This document shows positions 2,730 through 43,535 of a stretch of 64,000 bases of DNA, one piece after another; the first letter of the stretch is position 1, and each line of letters opens with the position of its first letter. A program made the position numbers and the translations under genes. The notes below the pieces were generated by a model, which saw only the letters and a list, made by a program, of their open reading frames with translations, was not told where the DNA came from and searched no databases. The stretch is from the NCBI RefSeq assembly GCF_988242995.1, contig NZ_OZ547043.1; one strand, written 5' to 3'.

Positions 2730-4511
2730 ATGGCAAAAATGAGAGCCGTTGACGCGGCAATGTATGTGCTGGAGAAAGAAGGTATCACCACCGCCTTCGG
2801 CGTTCCGGGAGCAGCAATCAATCCGTTCTATTCAGCGATGCGTAAGCACGGCGGTATTCGTCACATTCTGGCGCGTCATGTGGAAGGTGCTTCGCACATG
2901 GCGGAAGGTTATACCCGCGCAACGGCAGGGAATATCGGCGTATGTCTGGGAACCTCGGGACCAGCAGGCACTGACATGATCACCGCGCTCTATTCCGCTT
3001 CTGCTGATTCCATTCCTATTCTGTGTATTACCGGTCAGGCACCGCGCGCCCGTCTGCATAAAGAAGATTTTCAGGCCGTAGATATTGAAGCAATTGCTAA
3101 ACCGGTCAGCAAAATGGCGGTTACAGTTCGTGAAGCGGCGCTGGTGCCTCGTGTGCTGCAACAGGCATTTCACCTGATGCGTTCTGGTCGTCCGGGGCCG
3201 GTACTGGTGGATTTACCGTTTGACGTACAGGTTGCGGAAATCGAGTTTGATCCTGACATGTACGAACCGCTGCCGGTCTACAAACCTGCAGCCAGCCGTA
3301 TGCAGATCGAAAAAGCGGTAGAAATGTTAATTCAGGCCGAACGTCCGGTGATTGTTGCCGGGGGCGGGGTAATCAATGCTGACGCAGCTGCACTGCTACA
3401 ACAGTTTGCTGAACTGACCAGCGTTCCGGTGATCCCAACGCTGATGGGCTGGGGCTGTATCCCGGATGACCACGAACTGATGGCCGGGATGGTGGGTCTG
3501 CAAACCGCGCATCGTTACGGTAACGCAACGCTACTGGCGTCCGACATGGTGTTTGGTATCGGTAACCGTTTTGCTAACCGTCATACCGGTTCGGTAGAGA
3601 AATACACCGAAGGGCGCAAAATCGTTCATATCGATATTGAGCCGACGCAAATTGGCCGCGTGCTGTGTCCGGATCTCGGCATTGTCTCTGATGCTAAAGC
3701 AGCGCTGACGCTGCTGGTTGAAGTGGCGCAGGAGATGCAAAAAGCGGGTCGTCTGCCGTGTCGTAAAGAATGGGTCGCCGACTGCCAGCAGCGCAAACGC
3801 ACTTTGCTGCGCAAAACCCACTTCGACAACGTGCCGGTGAAACCGCAGCGCGTGTATGAAGAGATGAACAAAGCCTTTGGTCGCGATGTTTGTTATGTCA
3901 CCACCATTGGTCTGTCACAAATCGCTGCGGCACAAATGCTGCATGTCTTTAAAGACCGCCACTGGATCAACTGTGGGCAGGCAGGCCCGCTGGGCTGGAC
4001 GATTCCGGCGGCGCTGGGGGTTTGTGTCGCGGATCCAGAGCGCAAAGTGGTGGCGATTTCCGGTGACTTCGACTTCCAGTTCCTGATTGAAGAGTTAGCC
4101 GTTGGCGCACAGTTCAACATTCCGTACATCCATGTACTGGTCAACAACGCTTATCTGGGGCTGATTCGCCAGTCGCAGCGCGCGTTTGATATGGATTACT
4201 GCGTACAGCTCGCGTTCGAAAATATTAACTCCAGCGAAGTGAACGGTTACGGCGTCGACCACGTAAAAGTAGCGGAAGGTTTAGGTTGTAAAGCGATTCG
4301 CGTTTTCAAACCGGAAGATATAGCACCAGCCTTTGAACAGGCGAAAGCCTTAATGGCGCAATATCGGGTACCGGTAGTCGTGGAAGTTATTCTCGAGCGT
4401 GTGACCAATATTTCGATGGGCAGCGAACTGGATAATGTCATGGAATTTGACGATATCGCCGATAACGCAGTGGATGCACCAACTGAAACCTGCTTCATGC
4501 ACTATGAATAA
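2730..4511 (+). CDS. gcl: glyoxylate carboligase (ThDP-dependent)
   Basis: 593 aa from ATG at 2730 preceded by AGAGGTAGG RBS; the track ORF from 2640 is an upstream extension. Confidence 0.9.
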
Positions 4512-34813: not shown

Positions 34814-34890
34814 GCGCCCTTAGCTCAGTTGGATAGAGCAACGACCTTCTAAGTCGTGGGCCGCAGGTTCGAATCCTGCAGGGCGCGCCA
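34814..34890 (+). tRNA. argU: tRNA-Arg (UCU anticodon)
   Basis: 77-nt sequence with acceptor stem GCGCCCU/AGGGCGC, anticodon loop cuUCUaa, T-loop GGTTCGAATCC, 3' CCA; integrase gene immediately downstream. Confidence 0.9.
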
Positions 34891-34905
34891 TTACAATTCA
34901 ATCAG

Positions 34906-36069
34906 TTACGCCTTCTTTATATCCTCCATAATTCCAGAGTGGGACATATTTGGGACATTATCACCAAAAATGTCGTCTATTTTCCTCGCATGCTCTGTCA
35001 AATGATTAGGCGCAAGGTGAGCATACCTACGAACCATTTCTATGGACTCCCATCCGCCCATTTCCTGAAGCACTGATAATGGGACGCCTGACTGAATCAG
35101 CCAGCTTGCCCAGGTGTGTCTGAGGTCATGGAAACGGAAATCTTCAATTCCTGCACGACGACAAGCTGATAGCCATGATGTCTTGCTGTCGATGCGCATC
35201 TTCCTGACCGCAGGCGTTGATGTTCCATCTGCTCGCTTAGCCGCCTTGGTATGTACAAACACCCATTTGTGATGCTTGCCTATTTGATCACGCAACACTT
35301 TACAGGCGGTATCGTTCAGCGCCACACCAATGGCGCGGTTTGATTTGCTCTCTTCTGGATTCACCCAGGCAACTCGTCGCTGCATGTCGATTTGTTGCCA
35401 TTCCAGATTTATGATGTTCGACTTTCTCAGACCAGTTGCCAGCGCAAACTTGACGACAGATTTCAGTGGTTCGGGGCACTCATCAATAAGGCGTTTTGCT
35501 TCCTCCTTTTCCAGCCATCTGACTCGCTTGTTTCTGACCGCTGGTATCTTGATGACAGGCGCTTTTTCCAGCCACTTCCAGTCGCGTTCTGCAGCACGGA
35601 GAATGGCCTTTATCATGGCAAGATGCTTTGCCTTTGTCTGAGTTGATACTGGCTTTGGTTCATAAACAGGCAGTTCTTTACCTTTCCTGATGGCGGCCTG
35701 AACTTTCTGTTTCCATATTTCTTTCGTCTTTCTGTTATGCATTCTGCTTACAGCAGAGTAAATCTTTGCCTCCGAGATATCTTTAAGCCTTATACCCTCA
35801 AAATGTTCAAGCCAGAACTCAATCCGGCTTTTATCTGAATCGAGAGATTTTTTATCAGCTTTTTCCTCAAGCCATCTTAGGCAGGCCTCTTCAAAAGTGA
35901 CATCAGGTAAATCCCCTAGCTTTTCTACTCGCCAGAGTTCTGCTTTTCGCTTGTCGTGCAACTCCTGAGCTTGCCGCTTGTCCTTTGTGCCAAGAGATTC
36001 CTTAATTCGTTTCCCGCCCGGGAGCGAATACGAGGCGTACCATATTTCATTTCTGCGGAAGAGTGACAT
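34906..36069 (-). CDS. intD: tyrosine recombinase, DLP12-type prophage integrase
   Basis: 387-aa ORF with C-terminal R...HxxR...Y catalytic region (HDLRHTWAS...RYAHL); adjacent to argU. Confidence 0.85.
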
Positions 36070-36296
36070 TTTCTTTCCTCTGTTATGCCATCACCCGCGC
36101 TCACTTGGACAGTATGCAGCGGAGACTGAAGCGCCGCAATGCAGGCTTGCCGTGTTGTGAGGTAAGGAGATTTTGGCTTGGTTGGATCTTTACGTGTTGC
36201 CTGTAGGCGGCCTGTTCGTATCCAGTTGGTGGCGGTTGGTCTGGATATCTTAAGAAACTGACAGGCCTCATCGAGTGTGAGGCTGTATGATTCCAT
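35925..36296 (-). CDS. xisD: putative excisionase
   Basis: ORF overlapping the 5' end of int, with an HTH-like segment ([26 protein letters not shown]); exact ends uncertain. Confidence 0.45.
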
Positions 36297-36546
36297 GGTT
36301 ACCTCTGCTTTTTGAACGCATGTCACGTAACTTCTTAATGTGTTCTGCCGTTTCGATCTCTTCTGCTATCCGATCTGCATCAGCTTTATTCACAGGTTCA
36401 AAGTCATGATTAAAGCGGAACATGCTGGCGATACATGTTCTGCCTTTTCGGATGTAGTGAACTTTGTTGTGGGTAGAACGCAGGATTTTGCAGGGAGTGC
36501 CGTGGTGGTCGACGTACCAGGTGTTAGGAAAAATGATTCTGAACAT
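36268..36546 (-). CDS. hypothetical phage protein
   Basis: 92-aa ORF co-oriented with early-left genes; no recognised motif. Confidence 0.4.
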   Translation of the reverse strand: MFRIIFPNTWYVDHHGTPCKILRSTHNKVHYIRKGRTCIASMFRFNHDFEPVNKADADRIAEEIETAEHIKKLRDMRSKSRGNHGIIQPHTR

Positions 36547-36593
36547 TTTTACACCTCAGTTGGACGATGTTGAAATTTGCTGCTTTGAGGCCA

Positions 36594-36812
36594 TCACAGT
36601 CCCCATTGTTTGTTCTTAAGTTCGATCTCCTCCTGGCAACTTGCACAAGTCCGACAACCCTGAACAGCCAGGCGTCTTCGCTCATCTATCGGATCGCCAC
36701 ACTCACAACAATGAGTTGCGGATACAGTCTGGTAGTTCAGACGACGCATTTTTATTGCTGTATTGCGCTGTAATTCTTCGATTTCTGATGCTGAATCAAT
36801 GATGTCTGCCAT
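36594..36812 (-). CDS. TraR/DksA-family C4 zinc-finger protein
   Basis: 72-aa ORF with CxxC...CxxC pattern (CCECGDPID...CRTCASC) typical of phage TraR-like proteins. Confidence 0.6.
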   Translation of the reverse strand: MADIIDSASEIEELQRNTAIKMRRLNYQTVSATHCCECGDPIDERRRLAVQGCRTCASCQEEIELKNKQWGL

Positions 36813-36861
36813 CTTTCATTAATCCCTGAATTGTTGGTTAATACGCTTGAGGGTAAATGCG

Positions 36862-36889
36862 AATAATAAAAAAGGAGCCTGTAGCTCCC
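36862..36889 (-). terminator. rho-independent terminator on the minus strand
   Basis: hairpin ggagcctgtagctcc preceded on the plus strand by an A-run (a T-run on the transcribed strand). Confidence 0.4.
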
Positions 36890-36910
36890 TGATGATTTTG
36901 CTTTTCATGT

Positions 36911-37192
36911 TCACCGTTCCTTAAAGACGCCGTTCAACATGCCGATCGCCAGGCTTAAATGAGTCGGTGTGAATCCCATCAGCGTTACCGTTTCGCGGTG
37001 CTTCTTTAGTACGCTACGGCAAATGTCATCGACGTTTTTATCCGGAAAATGCTGTCTGGCTTTTTTGATTTCAGAATTAGCCAGACGGGCAATGCTGCGA
37101 AGGGCGTTTTCTTGCTGAGGTGTCATTGAACAAGCCCCATGTCGGCAAGCATAAGCACACAGAATATGAAGCCCGCTGCCAGAAAAATGCAT
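36911..37192 (-). CDS. hypothetical phage protein
   Basis: 93-aa ORF in the early-left operon; start uncertain. Confidence 0.4.
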   Translation of the reverse strand: MHFSGSGLHILCAYACRHGACSMTPQQENALRSIARLANSEIKKARQHFPDKNVDDICRSVLKKHRETVTLMGFTPTHLSLAIGMLNGVFKER

Positions 37193-37202
37193 TCAGTGGT
37201 TG

Positions 37203-37394
37203 TCATACCTGGTCTCTCTCATCTGCTTCTGCTTTCGCCACCATCATTTCCAGCTTTTGTGAAAGGGATGTGGCTAACGTATGAAATTCTTCGTCTGTTT
37301 CTACTGGTATTGGCACAAACCTGACTCCAATTTGAGCAAGGCTATGTGCCATCTCAATACTCGTTCTTAACTCAACAGGAGATGCTTTGTGCAT
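37203..37394 (-). CDS. hypothetical small phage protein
   Basis: 63-aa acidic ORF, co-oriented with and just upstream of exo. Confidence 0.35.
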   Translation of the reverse strand: MHKASPVELRTSIEMAHSLAQIGVRFVPIPVETDEEFHTLATSLSQKLEMMVAKAEADERDQV

Positions 37395-37545
37395 ACCGCC
37401 TCCCGTTTATTATTTATCTTCTCAGCCAGCCGCTGTGCTTTCAGTGGATTTCTGATAACAGAAAGGCCGGGAAATACCCAGCCTCGCTTTGTAACGGAGT
37501 AGACGAAAGTGATCGCGCCTACCCGGATATTATCGTGAGGATGCG

Positions 37546-38226
37546 TCATCGCCATTGCTCCCCAAATACAAAACCAATTTCAGCCAGTGCCTCGTCCATT
37601 TTTTCGATGAACTCCGGCACCATCTCGTCAAAACTCGCCATGTACTTTTCATTCCGCTCAATCACGACATAATGCAGGCCTTCACGCTTCATGCGCGGGT
37701 CATAGTTGGCAAAGTACCAGGCATCTTTTCGCGTCACCCACATGCTGTACTGCACCTGGGCCATGTAAGCCGATTTTATTGCCTCGAAACCACCGAGCCG
37801 GAATTTCATGAAATCCCGGGAGGTAAACGGGCATTTCAGTTCAAGGCCGTTGCCGTCACTGCATAAACCATCGGGAGAGCAGGCGGTGCGCATACTTTCG
37901 TCGCGATAGATGATCGGGGATTCAGTAATATTCACGCCGGAAGTGAATTCAAACAGGGTTCTGGCGTCGTTCTCGTACTGTTTTCCCCAGGCCAGCGCCT
38001 TAGCATTAACTTCCGGAGCCACACCGGTGCAAACCTCAGCCAGCAGGGTGTGGAAGTAGGACATTTTCATGTCAGGCCACTTCTTTCCTGAGCGGGGCTT
38101 TGCTATCACGTTGTGAACTTCTGAAGCGGTGATGACGCCGAGCCGTAATTTGTGCCATGCATCATCCCCCTGTTCGACAGCTCTCACGTCGATCCCGGTA
38201 CGCTGCAGGATAATGTCCGGTATCAT
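37546..38226 (-). CDS. exo: lambda exonuclease (Red-alpha)
   Basis: 226-aa ORF near-identical to recalled lambda Exo ([30 protein letters not shown]...). Confidence 0.9.
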
Positions 38227-39008
38227 GCTGCCACCTTCTGCTCAGTGGCTTTCTGTTTCAGGAATCCAAGAGCTTTCACTGCTTCGGCCTGTGTCAGTTC
38301 TGACGATGCGCGAATGTCGCGGCGAAATATCTGGGAACAGAGCGGCAATAAGTCGTCATCCCATGTTTTATCCAGGGCGATCAGCAGAGTGTTAATCTCC
38401 TGCATGGTTTCATCGTTAACCGGAGTGATGTCGCGTTCTGGCTGACGTTCTGCAGTGTATGCAGTATTTTCGACAATGCGCTCGGCTTCATCCTTGTCAT
38501 AGATACCAGCAAATCCGAAGGCCAGACGGGCACACTGAATCATGGCTTTATGCCGTAACATCCGTTTGGGATGCGACTGCCACGGCCCCGTGATTTCTCT
38601 GCCTTCGCGGGTTTTGAATGGTTCGCGGCGGCATTCATCCATCCATTCGGTAACGCAGATCGGATGATTACGGTCCTTGCGGTAAATCCGGCATGTACAG
38701 GATTCATTGTCCTGCTCAAAGTCCATGCCATCAAACTGCTGGTTTTCATTGATGATGCGGGACCAGCCATCAACGCCCACCACCGGAACAATGCCGTTCT
38801 GCTTATCAGGGAAGGCGTAAATTTCTTTCGTCCACGGATTAAGGCCGTACTGGTTGGCGACGATCAGCAATGCGATGAACTGCGCATCGCTGGCATCACC
38901 TTTAAATGCCGTCTGGCGAAGAGTGGTGATCAGTTCCTGTGGGTCGACAGAATCCATGCCGACACGTTCAGCCAGCTTCCCTGCCAGCGTTGCGAGTGCT
39001 GTACTCAT
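38223..39008 (-). CDS. bet: recombination protein Bet (Red-beta)
   Basis: 261-aa ORF near-identical to recalled lambda Bet. Confidence 0.9.
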
Positions 39009-39013
39009 CCGTT

Positions 39014-39310
39014 TTATACCTCTGAATCAATATCAACCTGGTGGTGAGCAATGGTTTCAACCATGTACCGGATGTGTTCTGCCATGCGCTCCTGAAACTC
39101 AACATCGTCATCAAACGCACGGGTAATGGCTTTTTTGCTGGCCCCGTGGCGTTGCAAATGATCGATGCATAGCGATTCAAACAGGTGCTGGGGCAGGCCT
39201 TTTTCCATGTCGTCTGCCAGTTCTGCCTCTTTCTCTTCACGGGCGATCTGCTGGTAGTAACGCGCCCAGCTCTGAGCCTCAAGACGATCCTGAATGTAAT
39301 AAGCGTTCAT
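39014..39310 (-). CDS. gam: host RecBCD inhibitor Gam
   Basis: 98-aa ORF matching recalled lambda Gam short form ([17 protein letters not shown]...). Confidence 0.85.
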
Positions 39311-39385
39311 GGCTGAACTCCTGAAAATGGCTGTGAAAATATCGCCCGCGAAATGCCAGGCTGATTAGGAAAACAGGAAAGGGGA

Positions 39386-39796
39386 TTAGCGATTCAGGCC
39401 GTTAGCGCGTCCGTCGAGAAAAACTTCCACGAGCAAATCACGGGTATAAGTGCGCTCGATGCCGCGATGCAGATAAAGCCGTCCGCGTAAATTACCTGAT
39501 GCAGTCCAGGTACCATCTTTGTGTTTGACCAGCATTCCTGGCATGATCGCACCTCGATTAACGGTCTGCGTTCCGTAATGTTGATGAACCATAAAAACTC
39601 CTGCCCGTAAGCTGGGCTGCTGAACATATAGAGACTTCTGCGCGTATTCAGGCGGTGGATGGCCGCCGGTTGTCATAACTAAGTCGCCTCGTTGAAGCGA
39701 CTGAGGTATGAAGTGTTGAGTTGATTTCAGCTGGTCACACCGACGTTCACGCGTCCGTTTCACCCCTCGCACTCCCCGAAGCCTGCTGAAATTCAA
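39386..39796 (-). CDS. hypothetical early-left protein with Arg-rich N-terminus, function unknown
   Basis: 136-aa ORF between gam and the putative pL/oL region, where lambda carries kil-cIII-ral-sieB-N; no match to recalled lambda N, Kil or CIII. Confidence 0.4.
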
Positions 39797-39849
39797 ACTG
39801 CGGATCTAAGCGGTCATCGCAACGGTGAATCAGGTAGTTGCCGTATCGT

Positions 39850-39946
39850 TGTGTTGTTGCGATGAACTTATTTAAAACTATAGTTGTTTTATCGTCAACA
39901 ACAAAAGTTGTTTTATTGGTTGTTTTAGATATAACTGGTTGTATTT
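39850..39946. promoter_or_regulatory. putative left operator/promoter (oL/pL) region
   Basis: several GTTGTT/AACAAC motifs including the palindrome AACAACaaaaGTTGTT (39897-39912), the same half-site seen between cI and cro. Confidence 0.35.
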
Positions 39947-40019
39947 AGGATGGATTTATTTTGTGACTTGAATCGCATAGCGATAACTGAAGCGAGGTTA
40001 TGGTGGTTTTTTTAACGGT

Positions 40020-40048
40020 GTGTGTGATGAGGGGAGGGCAAAAGAAAA
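40020..40048 (-). terminator. rho-independent terminator downstream of cI
   Basis: hairpin cccggcacggtgaccggg; on the minus strand it is followed by TTTTCTTTT. Confidence 0.45.
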
Positions 40049-40187
40049 CCCGGCACGGTGACCGGGATTCTTACGCCGTTAGGTAAAGATATTATTGCGG
40101 TGGCTTAATATTACTACCTAGAGCAAAGATAGGAATTAGTTCTTTACTGAATGAGCACAATGCCCAGTTGATAATTTTTAATTGGTA

Positions 40188-40877
40188 CTACCCATGCTTC
40201 CTATATGTCTGCGGCATGCTCCCAATAACCTTACCGAAGATGAACACCCGGTTCATCTCGTCTTTCTCGATCGGGTCCCACGGTGAGTAGCTTTTGTTAT
40301 CAGAGATGACCAGCAGCTTATCCTTCATCATTTGCAGGCGCTTTACATGGGCTGTGTCGTCGTACAGAAACGCATAGATACCATCACCGTCGAAAGATTT
40401 AACTGTGATATCAACGAACAGCAGATCACCTGGTTCGATCGTTCCTGACATGCTGTCACCACGCACGTTAATGATGCGGATATTTTCCGCCTTCCTACCA
40501 TCGAACATGTGACGAGCATCGTCAAACGAGTACTCAACCGAGCGTAGAACTTCTACAAACTCACGGTTGATGACTCCCGGCCCAGCACTGACTTCTATAT
40601 CAAGAACGTCAATCTTGAAGTATTTGGAATGGCTGACAGTTGATTGTATTGGTTGCACTGTACTGTCTGACATATTTCCAACGCCAGAAGATAACCATTC
40701 TGCGCGCACACCCAAAGCGTTCGCGATCTCCACGATTTTAGTTGTTTGATTAGCTTTCCCTGTTTCGATTTTCTGAATAGCAGCCTGGCTAACCCCGACC
40801 AAATCCCCAAGCGCCTTTTGTGTAAGGCCTCGCGCTAATCTGGCTTCTTTAAGTCTTTCTGAGAGTGTTGTTTTCAT
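40188..40877 (-). CDS. cI: prophage repressor (CI-like): N-terminal HTH, C-terminal LexA-type S24 peptidase domain
   Basis: 229 aa from Met MKTTLSERLKEARLARGLTQKALG...; self-cleavage-type GDSM motif; divergent from cro. Confidence 0.8.
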   Translation of the reverse strand: MKTTLSERLKEARLARGLTQKALGDLVGVSQAAIQKIETGKANQTTKIVEIANALGVRAEWLSSGVGNMSDSTVQPIQSTVSHSKYFKIDVLDIEVSAGPGVINREFVEVLRSVEYSFDDARHMFDGRKAENIRIINVRGDSMSGTIEPGDLLFVDITVKSFDGDGIYAFLYDDTAHVKRLQMMKDKLLVISDNKSYSPWDPIEKDEMNRVFIFGKVIGSMPQTYRKHG

Positions 40878-40885
40878 AGTCCAAA

Positions 40886-40943
40886 TGTACAACCAAGGTT
40901 TTATTCCATCAAACGAAAATGGTTGTTGACTAAAAACAACCAT
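40886..40943. promoter_or_regulatory. putative right operator (oR) / pRM-pR region
   Basis: palindromes AACCAAGGTT (40891-40900) and ATGGTTGTT-N7-AACAACCAT (40919-40943) in the 104-bp cI-cro divergent intergenic. Confidence 0.5.
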
Positions 40944-40981
40944 AGTTTTAATCTTGATTCAAATTAACCACGGAGGTTGTT

Positions 40982-41212
40982 ATGAACCCAGCTATCAAAA
41001 CAGCGATCAATATCGTTGGTTCACAAAAGAAACTGGGCGCTGCTTGCGAAGTTTCACAGCAGGCCGTCTATAAGTGGCTTCACAACAAAGCAAAGGTATC
41101 CCCTGAACATGTCGGCAGCATTGTTACGGCTACTGGTGGAGTAGTGAAGGCATACCAGATTCGCCCGGATCTTCCGAAGTTGTTTCCACACACCGAAAAG
41201 AACGCAGCTTAA
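40982..41212 (+). CDS. cro: Cro-like HTH regulator
   Basis: 76-aa ORF with HTH (KKLGAACEVSQQAVYKWL), divergent from cI. Confidence 0.7.
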   Translation: MNPAIKTAINIVGSQKKLGAACEVSQQAVYKWLHNKAKVSPEHVGSIVTATGGVVKAYQIRPDLPKLFPHTEKNAA

Positions 41213-41281
41213 ATTTCCATTTCACGCTCTTTAACAATAAGCAATCAACTTAACAGTCAATTCAAACTAAAGGAGTCAATT

Positions 41282-41821
41282 ATGCAACCACTTACATACC
41301 AACAGACTAGCGGATTTAGCCCGACTGCGGTGATAAATCGTTCTCAAACAAAACAGGTGCCAGGCCACGAAAAAATCCGTGATGCCGTCCGCGCCTGGTC
41401 GGCTGTAGATAATCAGGATGTCGTTGCCACACTCATTGTGAATGAGTATCGGGAGCAGGGCGGCGGCACCATCGATTTCCCTGATGATGTCAGCCGTGCA
41501 CGCCAGAAGCTGTTCCGCTTCCTCGATAACAAATTCGATTCTGAAAAATACCGAAATAACGTGCGTGAACTGACCCCGGCAATTCTGGCGGTACTACCGC
41601 TGGAATATCGCGGTTACCTGGTTGAGCAGGATAGCTTCATGGCTAGGTTGGCTGAAATGGAAAAGGAACTCAGTGAGGCAAAACAGGCTGTCATTCTCAA
41701 CGCACCACGCCACCAGAAACTGAAGGAAATTAGTGAAGGTATTGTGTCGATGTTTCGTGTGGACCCAGATCTGGCTGGTCCATTGATGGCGATGGTTACT
41801 ACCATGCTGGGGGCGATATGA
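41282..41821 (+). CDS. CII-like regulatory protein (family assignment tentative)
   Basis: 179-aa ORF between cro and O, the position of cII; resembles recalled phage CP76-type proteins. Confidence 0.45.
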   Translation: MQPLTYQQTSGFSPTAVINRSQTKQVPGHEKIRDAVRAWSAVDNQDVVATLIVNEYREQGGGTIDFPDDVSRARQKLFRFLDNKFDSEKYRNNVRELTPAILAVLPLEYRGYLVEQDSFMARLAEMEKELSEAKQAVILNAPRHQKLKEISEGIVSMFRVDPDLAGPLMAMVTTMLGAI

Positions 41822-41907
41822 CAGGTTCAGAAATGGCGAAAGCCGGTCTGCTGGAACAGAACCGACTTTCAGGTGCAAATCGTAACACACTCATTGCGGG
41901 AGGAATT

Positions 41908-42837
41908 ATGGCAAACACTGCTGAGATATTCAATTTTCCAGTGCCGGATGCGGCACAAAAGGAGCCGCGCGTGGCAGATCTCGATGATGGTTATACGCGC
42001 ATTGCAAATGAGTTGCTGGAAGCTGTGATGCTGGCCGGATTAACACAGCACCAGCTTCTGGTCTTTCTGGCTGTCATGCGCAAAACATATGGCTTTAATA
42101 AAAAACTGGATTGGGTTAGCAACGAGCAACTTTCCGAATTAACCGGGATATTGCCGCACAAGTGTTCTGCTGCAAAAAGTGTTCTGGTAAAGCGTGGGAT
42201 TTTTATTCAGAGCGGGCGGAATACCGGCATTAATAATGTGGTCAGTGAATGGTCAACATTACCCGAATCAGGTAAGAGAAATAAAGTTTACCTGAAAGAG
42301 GTAAATTTACCTGAATCAGGTAAAAAAAGTTTACCCAAATCAGGTAAAGGCGTTTACCCGAATCAGGTAAACACAAAAGACAAACTAACAAAAGACAATA
42401 TAAAACCTTTTTCGTCCGAGAATTCTGGCGAATCCTCTGACCAACCAGAAAACGATCTTCCTGTGGTGAAACCGGATGCTGCAATTCAGAGCGGCAGCAA
42501 GTGGGGGACAGCAGAAGACCTGACCGCCGCAGAGTGGATGTTTGACATGGTGAAGACCATCGCGCCATCAGCCAGAAAACCGAATTTTGCAGGGTGGGCT
42601 AACGATATCCGCCTGATGCGTGAACGTGACGGACGTAACCACCGCGACATGTGCGTGCTGTTCCGCTGGGCATGCCAGGACAACTTCTGGTCCGGTAACG
42701 TGCTAAGTCCGGCCAAACTCCGCGACAAGTGGACCCAGCTCGAAATCAACCGAAACAAGCAACAGGCTGGCGTGACAGCCGGCAAACCAAAACTCGACCT
42801 GACGAACACTGACTGGATTTACGGGGTGGAGCTATGA
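41908..42837 (+). CDS. O: replication initiator O
   Basis: lambda O-like N-terminus (..NFPVP..VADLDDGY..) from ATG 41908 with GGGAGG RBS; contains ori iterons; track start 41818 also possible. Confidence 0.8.
   Translation: MANTAEIFNFPVPDAAQKEPRVADLDDGYTRIANELLEAVMLAGLTQHQLLVFLAVMRKTYGFNKKLDWVSNEQLSELTGILPHKCSAAKSVLVKRGIFIQSGRNTGINNVVSEWSTLPESGKRNKVYLKEVNLPESGKKSLPKSGKGVYPNQVNTKDKLTKDNIKPFSSENSGESSDQPENDLPVVKPDAAIQSGSKWGTAEDLTAAEWMFDMVKTIAPSARKPNFAGWANDIRLMRERDGRNHRDMCVLFRWACQDNFWSGNVLSPAKLRDKWTQLEINRNKQQAGVTAGKPKLDLTNTDWIYGVEL
42259..42371. repeat. replication origin iterons inside O
   Basis: five direct repeats of about 19 bp, TTTACC(C/T)GAAtCAGGTAAA, each internally palindromic. Confidence 0.6.
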
Positions 42838-43535
42838 AAAACATCGCCGCACAGATGGTTAACTTTGACTGTGAGCAGATGCGCCGGATCGCCAACAACA
42901 TGCCGGAACAGTACGACGAAAAGCCACAGGTACAGCAGGTAGCGCAGATCATCAACGGTGTGTTCAGCCAGTTACTGGCAACTTTCCCGGCGAGCCTGGC
43001 TAACCGTGACCAGAATGAACTGAACGAAATCCGCCGCCAGTGGGTTCTGGCTTTCCGGGAAAACGGGATCACCACAATGGAACAGGTTAACGCTGGAATG
43101 CGCGTAGCCCGTCGGCAGAATCGACCATTCCTGCCATCACCCGGGCAGTTTGTCGCCTGGTGCCGGGAAGAAGCATCTGTTAACGCCGGGCTGCCAAACG
43201 TCAGCGAGCTGGTTGATATGGTTTACGAGTATTGCCGGAAGCGTGGCCTGTATCCGGATGCAGAGTCTTATCCGTGGAAATCGAACGCGCATTACTGGTT
43301 GGTTACCAACTTGTACCAGAACATGCGGGCCAATGCGCTGACTGACGCGGAATTACGGCGCAAGGCTGCCGATGAACTGACCTGTATGACAGCGCGAATT
43401 AACCGTGGTGAGACGATACCTGAACCAGTAAAACAACTTCCTGTTATGGGCGGTAGACCTCTAAATCGTGCACAGGCTCTGGCGAAGATCGCAGAAATTA
43501 AAGCTAAGTTTGGACTGAAAGGATCGATGAAATAG
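42834..43535 (+). CDS. P: replication protein P (DnaB helicase loader)
   Basis: 233-aa ORF near-identical to recalled lambda P. Confidence 0.9.
   Translation: MKNIAAQMVNFDCEQMRRIANNMPEQYDEKPQVQQVAQIINGVFSQLLATFPASLANRDQNELNEIRRQWVLAFRENGITTMEQVNAGMRVARRQNRPFLPSPGQFVAWCREEASVNAGLPNVSELVDMVYEYCRKRGLYPDAESYPWKSNAHYWLVTNLYQNMRANALTDAELRRKAADELTCMTARINRGETIPEPVKQLPVMGGRPLNRAQALAKIAEIKAKFGLKGSMK

Follow-up and report, generated by a model that had tools for sequence, protein, structure and literature searches.

The 64,000-nucleotide stretch of DNA analysed here (the window) carries, within a prophage, an ortholog of the gene for bacteriophage lambda Orf73 (also called Orf2310), a small zinc-finger protein of the TraR family. 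The present analysis established the open reading frame, its motifs, its family membership, its fold and its operon position. The best explanation for the role of the 72-residue product, at a probability of roughly 0.9, is that it would act by the same mechanism as lambda Orf73, to which it is closely analogous. RNA polymerase binding, effects on promoters and an effect on burst size would all be expected from its 87% identity to the lambda protein, and by analogy with both TraR and Orf73 its action is probably independent of ppGpp. The finding amounts to the correct recognition of a gene that was already characterised, annotated and known to be very widespread; indeed, PGAP names the protein “TraR/DksA family transcriptional regulator” (WP_000763385.1). 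The original prediction, made from the DNA letters, had read the product as TraR-type and was correct as to family, but the already named and characterised orf73 went unrecognised.

The 72-codon frame that had been proposed was found at exactly the coordinates given for it, on the minus strand, and its translation is MADIIDSASEIEELQRNTAIKMRRLNYQTVSATHCCECGDPIDERRRLAVQGCRTCASCQEEIELKNKQWGL. The gene and the codons of its principal motifs are as follows.

36594..36812, minus strand: coding sequence of the orf73 ortholog including the stop codon (72 residues, ATG start, TGA stop)
36789..36806, minus strand: DxxDxA motif (DIIDSA, codons 3-8) at the tip of the N-terminal helix
36636..36710, minus strand: zinc-binding region, C35xxC38-17-C56xxC59 together with the extra C36 and C53 (codons 35-59)
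36705..36707, minus strand: codon for C36
36672..36677, minus strand: R46 and R47 (codons 46-47), equivalent to TraR R48/R49 in the alignment with TraR
36654..36656, minus strand: codon for C53

The product had been described as bearing a four-cysteine signature, and the CxxC-17-CxxC arrangement is certainly present, well outside what chance would produce, but the cysteines total six rather than four (positions 35, 36, 38, 53, 56 and 59). Two plus-strand open reading frames, at 36567..36773 and 36641..36802, were taken as spurious, being antisense to a well-supported gene.

Profile searches place the protein in the TraR family. The Pfam zf-dskA_traR profile (PF01258), which had been put forward as the check to make, matched residues 33-64 at 37.3 bits, above the gathering cut-off of 24.9 (E=2.8e-9), and phrog_54, a “DksA-like zinc-finger protein” family, covered the whole protein (E=3.6e-26). 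The NCBIfam model TIGR02419 (C4_traR_proteo) was aligned over its full profile (1-64; E=2e-14) with a score of 53.9 bits, below its cut-off of 59.7; this narrow miss concerns a single curated model and is compatible with the Pfam and PHROG assignments. Scores fell far short of the cut-offs of two equivalog models, those for F-plasmid TraR (NF010268; 25.8 bits versus a cut-off of 108) and for YbiI (NF008243, NCBIfam; 42.8 bits versus 96), so the protein lies within the TraR family yet is neither F TraR nor YbiI. Specifically, it belongs to the phage paralog group and is not the TraR of conjugative plasmids.

The residues that define the family are kept both in an alignment of 20 sequences (A1) and in 120 TraR-size representatives, the latter drawn from the 613 proteins found at E<=0.001 when 1.84 billion cluster representatives were searched. 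In the 20-sequence alignment, D6 and A8 of the DxxDxA motif are invariant and D3 is conserved in at least 90%; among the 120 representatives, the corresponding figures are 83% for D3, 93% for D6 and 92% for A8. C35, C38, C56 and C59 align with TraR C37, C40, C58 and C61, and all four of these zinc-site cysteines are retained in 105 of the 120 representatives. The motif E44xxR47L48 (E44-R-R46-R47-L48) is likewise present, and its R46 and R47, which are arginine in 95% and 92% of the representatives, respectively, align with TraR R48/R49, the pair that contacts the rim helices and β′ Si3 (PMC9239242). E64 in the C-terminal helix is invariant in the smaller alignment and is either E or D in 104 of the 120 representatives. 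All of these hallmark positions are either invariant or conserved to at least 90% in the smaller alignment. Across the 120 representatives, conservation of the hallmarks ranges from 83 to 98%, and every one of the key TraR and lambda Orf73 features listed by PMC9239242 and PMC8614690 was found in the 72-residue protein.

An alignment-based AlphaFold model (mean pLDDT 77.7, rising to approximately 90 over residues 31-70) consists of a helix at residues 8-28, two zinc knuckles, a short helix at 44-49 and a final helix at 57-70. In this model, a single N-terminal helix precedes the zinc knuckles, and the two-helix coiled coil of DksA is absent. When the model was compared to the PDB with Foldseek, the best matches were YbiI (2kgo) and TraR in RNA polymerase (6n57_M), followed by DksA and DksA2. 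The match to 6n57_M extends over 71 columns (TM 0.54, probability 1.00, E=2.2e-3) and is only moderate because the helix angles in the model are those of the free protein; DksA chains were matched over their C-terminal part only, in 81 columns of 140-145 residues. A sequence search of the PDB gave F TraR in its RNA polymerase complexes (5w1s, 6n57) and YbiI, and thus the same three families as Foldseek.

The closest known entity is lambda Orf73, with F TraR, YbiI and DksA being progressively more distant. F-plasmid TraR (PDB 5W1S, 6N57) is of the same length class and has the DxxDxA helix, a C4 site with 17-residue spacing, the RR pair and the C-terminal helix in common with the 72-residue protein, but the two are only ~30-32% identical, the gene for F TraR lies on a conjugative plasmid and not in a phage genome, and the phage protein has two additional cysteines. 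A functional difference is also on record, since lambda Orf73, unlike TraR, showed weak activation, if any, at the promoters tested (PMC9239242). E. coli YbiI (PDB 2KGO) was the top PDB sequence match (E=1.2e-5), and its fold matches over the zinc finger and C-terminal helix; however, the sequence alignment covers only query residues 31-67, and the solved YbiI chain is longer (108 residues according to the PDB sequence table and 88 according to the Foldseek library). Finally, DksA (PDB 1TJL, 5VSW, 7KHI) has a PF01258 domain in common with the phage protein, uses the same RNA polymerase site and possesses an analogous acidic tip motif, but it is a 151-residue protein with a two-helix coiled coil and a need for ppGpp, and the 72-residue protein corresponds to its C-terminal half only. 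DksA proper was therefore rejected as an identity, given 72 residues and one N-terminal helix versus some 150 residues and a coiled coil.

A tblastn search against phage genomes matched 514 records, with identities of 100% for Shigella phage SfI, 93% for several Shiga-toxin phages and 87% for phage lambda. The lambda match is an unannotated 73-codon open reading frame between ea22 and orf61 (positions 2993..3214 of the lambda segment L002), and this frame is the gene known as orf73. The protein identity of 87%, the same position after orf61 and the hairpin t2, and the collinearity of the surrounding DNA together make the 72-residue protein an ortholog of lambda Orf73. Collinearity begins at the end of exo and takes in orf60a, orf63, orf61, the hairpin and the first ~61 codons of orf73, at a DNA identity of 97-99% as estimated from the alignment, and the homology to lambda then ends abruptly.

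36594..36630, minus strand: mosaic junction with lambda, in the last ~11 codons of orf73

Over codons 1-61, the differences from lambda comprise seven synonymous codons and four conservative, non-synonymous ones; in the last 11 codons, six of the eight differing codons alter the amino acid, and the C-terminal 11 residues read EEIELKNKQWGL here versus EDLELISKQRGSK in lambda. In the 20-sequence alignment, the EEIELKNKQWGL terminus is nearer to the family consensus than that of lambda. Among 79 related IMG/VR loci, the EEIELKNKQWGL version occurs with a downstream DUF4222 gene and the EDLELISKQRGSK version with an ea22-like gene; because the C-terminal versions track the downstream gene, a junction of mosaic recombination is placed within the 3′ end of orf73. 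The two proteins thus have the same start, the six cysteines, DxxDxA and ExxRL in common, and differ in length (73 residues in lambda, 72 here) and in the last 11 residues. Beyond the gene itself, ea22 lies downstream of orf73 in lambda whereas a DUF4222 gene does so here, the immunity region is different, the N gene is absent, and lambda ea22, ea8.5 and orf55 are all missing from this prophage. A shorter variant was also seen: the copy in Escherichia phage PhiR34_1 (1715..1924 in segments L004/L006) has a stop at codon 70 (…KNKQ*), with loss of the last three residues, and a truncation of this type at codon 70 occurs in one IMG/VR locus as well.

The gene is part of a lambdoid prophage that begins at a tRNA gene and whose left arm (34889..43523) is 99.2% identical to that of PhiR34_1, the GenBank record of which describes a complete 44.6-kb genome and names E. 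coli K-12 MG1655 as the host. The features that define the setting of orf73 are the following.

34814..34890, plus strand: tRNA-Arg(TCT), which serves as the attachment site; the left end of the prophage lies at ~34889, where the PhiR34_1 match begins
36268..36546, minus strand: DUF4222 gene (Pfam E=1.9e-19; phrog_285), in place of lambda ea22, 47 nt past the orf73 stop
36911..37192, minus strand: orf61-like gene in a long, 93-residue form (phrog_303 end to end), directly upstream of orf73
37203..37394, minus strand: orf63 homolog (DUF1382; Pfam E=7.7e-31)
37367..37555, minus strand: orf60a homolog (DUF1317; Pfam E=2.5e-38)
39872..39916, minus strand: operator repeats of the pL/oL region, with pairs I1, I2 and I9 common to 40908..40951

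On the minus strand, the order is int, an HTH_17 excisionase-like open reading frame, DUF4222, orf73, orf61, orf63, orf60a, exo, bet, gam and a Kil-family gene. The orf73 gene falls in the exo-xis block, and its placement in the early-left operon, as originally proposed, was borne out: everything from int to kil is on the minus strand, downstream of an operator-bearing region at ~39.9 kb, and the assignment is correct because the inverted-repeat pairs I1, I2 and I9 are common to 39872..39916 and the cI-cro intergenic region (40908..40951).

A gene for the N antiterminator was sought in the ~390-nt gap between kil and cI, where no minus-strand open reading frame of more than 36 residues exists (39600..40187). 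The open reading frame at 39386..39796 was considered as N and rejected, as it matches only Kil (phrog_294), over residues 60-135. Likewise, comparison of the left-operon region with the pL region of HK022 gave no significant match that would indicate an HK022-type put RNA, and a search of 34.5-42 kb against Rfam returned tRNA only and no other known structured RNA. A single exact boxA, CGCTCTTTAACAA, is located at 41225..41237 in the right operon, between cro and a cII-like gene; it has no obvious boxB hairpin beside it and no boxA counterpart in the left operon.

Several observations on neighbouring genes were made along the way. PGAP annotates a 71-residue version of the 93-residue orf61 frame, and in lambda (L002 3313..3625) one extra A within an A-run splits the frame into the annotated 61-residue orf61 and an unannotated 60-residue open reading frame in another frame. 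Since phrog_303 matches the 93-residue form end to end, the lambda reference appears to be frameshifted, and it has already been noted that lambda Orf61 looks truncated (PMC8614690). The HTH_17 (excisionase-type) frame has 133 codons (35925..36326, minus strand) and overlaps the integrase gene by ~145 nt; for its counterpart in strain H10, PGAP gives only a 66-nt pseudogene fragment. A close relative of this prophage occupies the same tRNA-Arg site of E. coli H10, and there a 533-residue SIR2-family gene (L003 5444..7045), likely a defence gene in a rexAB-like position, lies between the repressor gene and kil. The prophage studied here differs from that of H10 in having no SIR2-family gene and a different repressor.

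Two hairpins with the appearance of terminators are found in the left operon upstream of orf73.

36860..36890 (36890..36872 in the scan), minus strand: terminator-like hairpin AGGGAGCUACAGGCUCCU followed by U6, between the orf61-like gene and orf73, equivalent to the predicted lambda t2
37463..37485, minus strand: second terminator-like hairpin, inside orf60a, equivalent to the predicted lambda t1 (-17.6 kcal/mol, z=-3.7)

The classical lambda terminator tL3 lies just beyond exo, which would make t1 a candidate for it, although neither hairpin was given that name. The sequence of the hairpin within orf60a is the same as that of t1 in PMC4195576. The t2 hairpin consists of a GC-rich stem of 8 bp followed by U6, positioned 22 nt after the orf61-like stop, with ~60 nt remaining to the start codon of orf73; its folding energy is -10.2 kcal/mol (z=-4.1), a value that none of 200 shuffles equalled. 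It is identical to that of lambda base for base, and it occurs in 79 of 79 related IMG/VR loci, 68 of them exactly. On the other side of the gene, a scan of the 47-nt gap 3′ of the orf73 stop found no terminator, the fold of the gap is no better than that of shuffles (z=+0.4), and the gap leads straight into a GAGG ribosome-binding site and the ATG of the DUF4222 gene. The position of orf73 had been described as terminator-bounded; the upstream hairpin with its U-tract bears out one side of that description, and with no terminator-like site downstream, “bounded” on both sides was rejected. Separately, a 31-codon open reading frame, MKSKIIRELQAPFLLFAFTLKRINQQFRD (36819..36914, minus strand), runs across the t2 hairpin and stops shortly ahead of the orf73 start codon, itself starting at GTG or, at 29 codons, at ATG. 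This 29/31-residue frame has no PHROG match and shows about three synonymous and three non-synonymous changes among the 79 loci; by its matching length, it may be the counterpart of lambda orf2313, a 31-residue product reported from ribosome profiling and mentioned in PMC8614690.

Partly separate regulation of orf73 is a plausible idea that has already been published: Bloch et al. (2014) predicted the terminator t2 and an overlapping promoter, p1 (PMC4195576). Taken further, orf73 would be a separately regulated unit in which the hairpin halts most leftward transcription while the overlapping promoter drives orf73 and the downstream genes, possibly in response to oxidative stress. The strength of t2 relative to shuffles and its retention in all 79 related loci speak for such a unit, as does a similar hairpin, AAGGAGCUUCAGCUCCUUUUUU, that precedes the 69%-identical homolog of Shigella phage 75/02 Stx despite a different upstream gene, ant (antirepressor). 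Moreover, this prophage has no N gene with which to override terminators, and published transcript levels are suggestive, with orf73/ea22/ea8.5 mRNA lower than that of the upstream genes in lambda and orf73/ea22 mRNA high in phage 24B, especially after H2O2 (PMC4195576). However, the t2/p1 sequences of lambda and 24B are identical while expression is opposite, so the sequence itself does not set the outcome; p1 is a BPROM prediction only (PMC4195576), and a consensus scan over the t2 hairpin detected no minus-strand promoter. Further arguments against a separate unit are that lambda orf73 is expressed from pL according to both ribosome profiling and PMC9239242, that no terminator follows the gene, and that in Salmonella S9-5 and Klebsiella Kp4856-1 the more distant homologs have no hairpin and directly adjoin or overlap the gene before them. 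On balance, a separately regulated unit is rather unlikely. A more elaborate suggestion draws on the additional cysteines, C36 and C53, which, as has been noted for lambda Orf73, are equivalent to positions 38 and 55 of TraR. C53 converts the second zinc knuckle into CxxCxxC and is not peculiar to lambda, being the majority state among the 120 representatives (Cys in 63, Val in 34); at position 36 Cys is rare (9 of 120), and H34 is frequent (53 of 120). The weak activation by lambda Orf73 was tentatively linked by its authors to the two extra cysteines (PMC9239242). It might be imagined that C53 is an oxidation- or metal-sensitive switch at the zinc site which, with the hairpin and a possible promoter in a prophage that has no N, would form a stress-responsive unit coupling RNA polymerase reprogramming to oxidative stress, but this is highly speculative and improbable.

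The action of the protein on RNA polymerase can be considered in the light of published work on the lambda ortholog by Gopalkrishnan et al. (2022). Purified lambda Orf73 is a competitor of DksA for E. coli RNA polymerase; without ppGpp, it inhibits rrnB P1, with an IC50 of ~50 nM, as well as rpsT P2; this inhibition is greatly weakened by D3N or D6N (PMC9239242). Secondary-channel binding and ppGpp-free inhibition of rRNA promoters were reported for lambda Orf73, TraR and four other homologs, and a dksA-null strain was complemented by lambda Orf73 (PMC9239242). The protein is expressed from pL at 5-20 min post induction, host growth is slowed, and phage yield is 3-4 fold higher with Orf73 (PMC9239242). 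The original suggestion that phage versions of TraR modulate host transcription has therefore been shown to hold for a protein 87% identical to the one studied here.

By analogy, inactivation of the repressor would allow the leftward early promoter to transcribe kil, gam, bet, exo and orf60a/63/61, and transcription would then enter orf73 to the extent that the two hairpin terminators are passed. The N-terminal helix of the 72-residue product would enter the secondary channel of RNA polymerase with its DxxDxA tip near the active site, the zinc-bound globular part would rest through R46/R47 on the rim helices and β′ Si3, and the C-terminal helix would touch the β Si1 insertion. The helix that differs from lambda in the last 11 residues is the part said to make this β Si1 contact. 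As a result, open complexes at rRNA and ribosomal-protein promoters would be destabilised with no need for ppGpp, host growth would slow, and the resources turned to the phage would increase the burst several-fold.

The physiological outcome of orf73 action is disputed. Another group assigned orf73 a pro-lysogenic role, with a lower phage yield (as cited in PMC9239242 and PMC8614690), and its main role might accordingly lie in the lysis-lysogeny decision or in a block to host replication (“bin”) rather than in lytic yield, whether indirectly through RNA polymerase or directly on another target. As summarised in PMC8614690, deletion of orf73 cut host survival and lysogenisation, which was read as pro-lysogenic, and earlier work cited in PMC9239242 implicates orf73, ea22, ea8.5 and orf55 in blocking the initiation of host replication. 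Nevertheless, lambda Orf73 had little or no effect on dnaA mRNA, and the differing phage yields have been ascribed to polar mutations or to the difference between infection and induction (PMC9239242). In addition, this prophage lacks ea22, ea8.5 and orf55, the sequence of the 72-residue protein bears no sign of a second target, and a role in lysogeny or replication is a matter of downstream physiology and not of molecular mechanism; a main role of this kind is a possibility, albeit a doubtful one. That this copy no longer has a function and survives only as a silent remnant of a decaying prophage is very improbable. Prophages at the tRNA-Arg(TCT) site do include known cryptic ones, and the window ends before the end of the prophage, with PhiR34_1 matched only in blocks beyond 43.5 kb. 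Even so, the open reading frame is intact and 100% identical to the phage SfI copy, the left arm is as close to PhiR34_1 as described above, most of the substitutions that separate it from lambda are synonymous or conservative, and the gene is kept in most complete E. coli genomes. Inhibition of host ribosomal promoters in the manner of lambda Orf73 thus stands as the preferred reading, and the left operon lacking N, the conserved hairpin and the common fifth cysteine would matter to it only if they alter how or when the protein acts.

For annotation, what is gained is the designation of orf73, a TraR-family RNA polymerase-binding regulator, in place of a generic zinc-finger protein. At a nucleotide identity of at least 90%, the gene was present in 61% of complete E. 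coli genomes (3311 of 5426), in up to six copies per genome, which places orf73 among the most widespread of all E. coli prophage genes. Because it is so widespread, the induction of such prophages, including Shiga-toxin phages, would be expected to shut down host ribosome synthesis without the stringent response.
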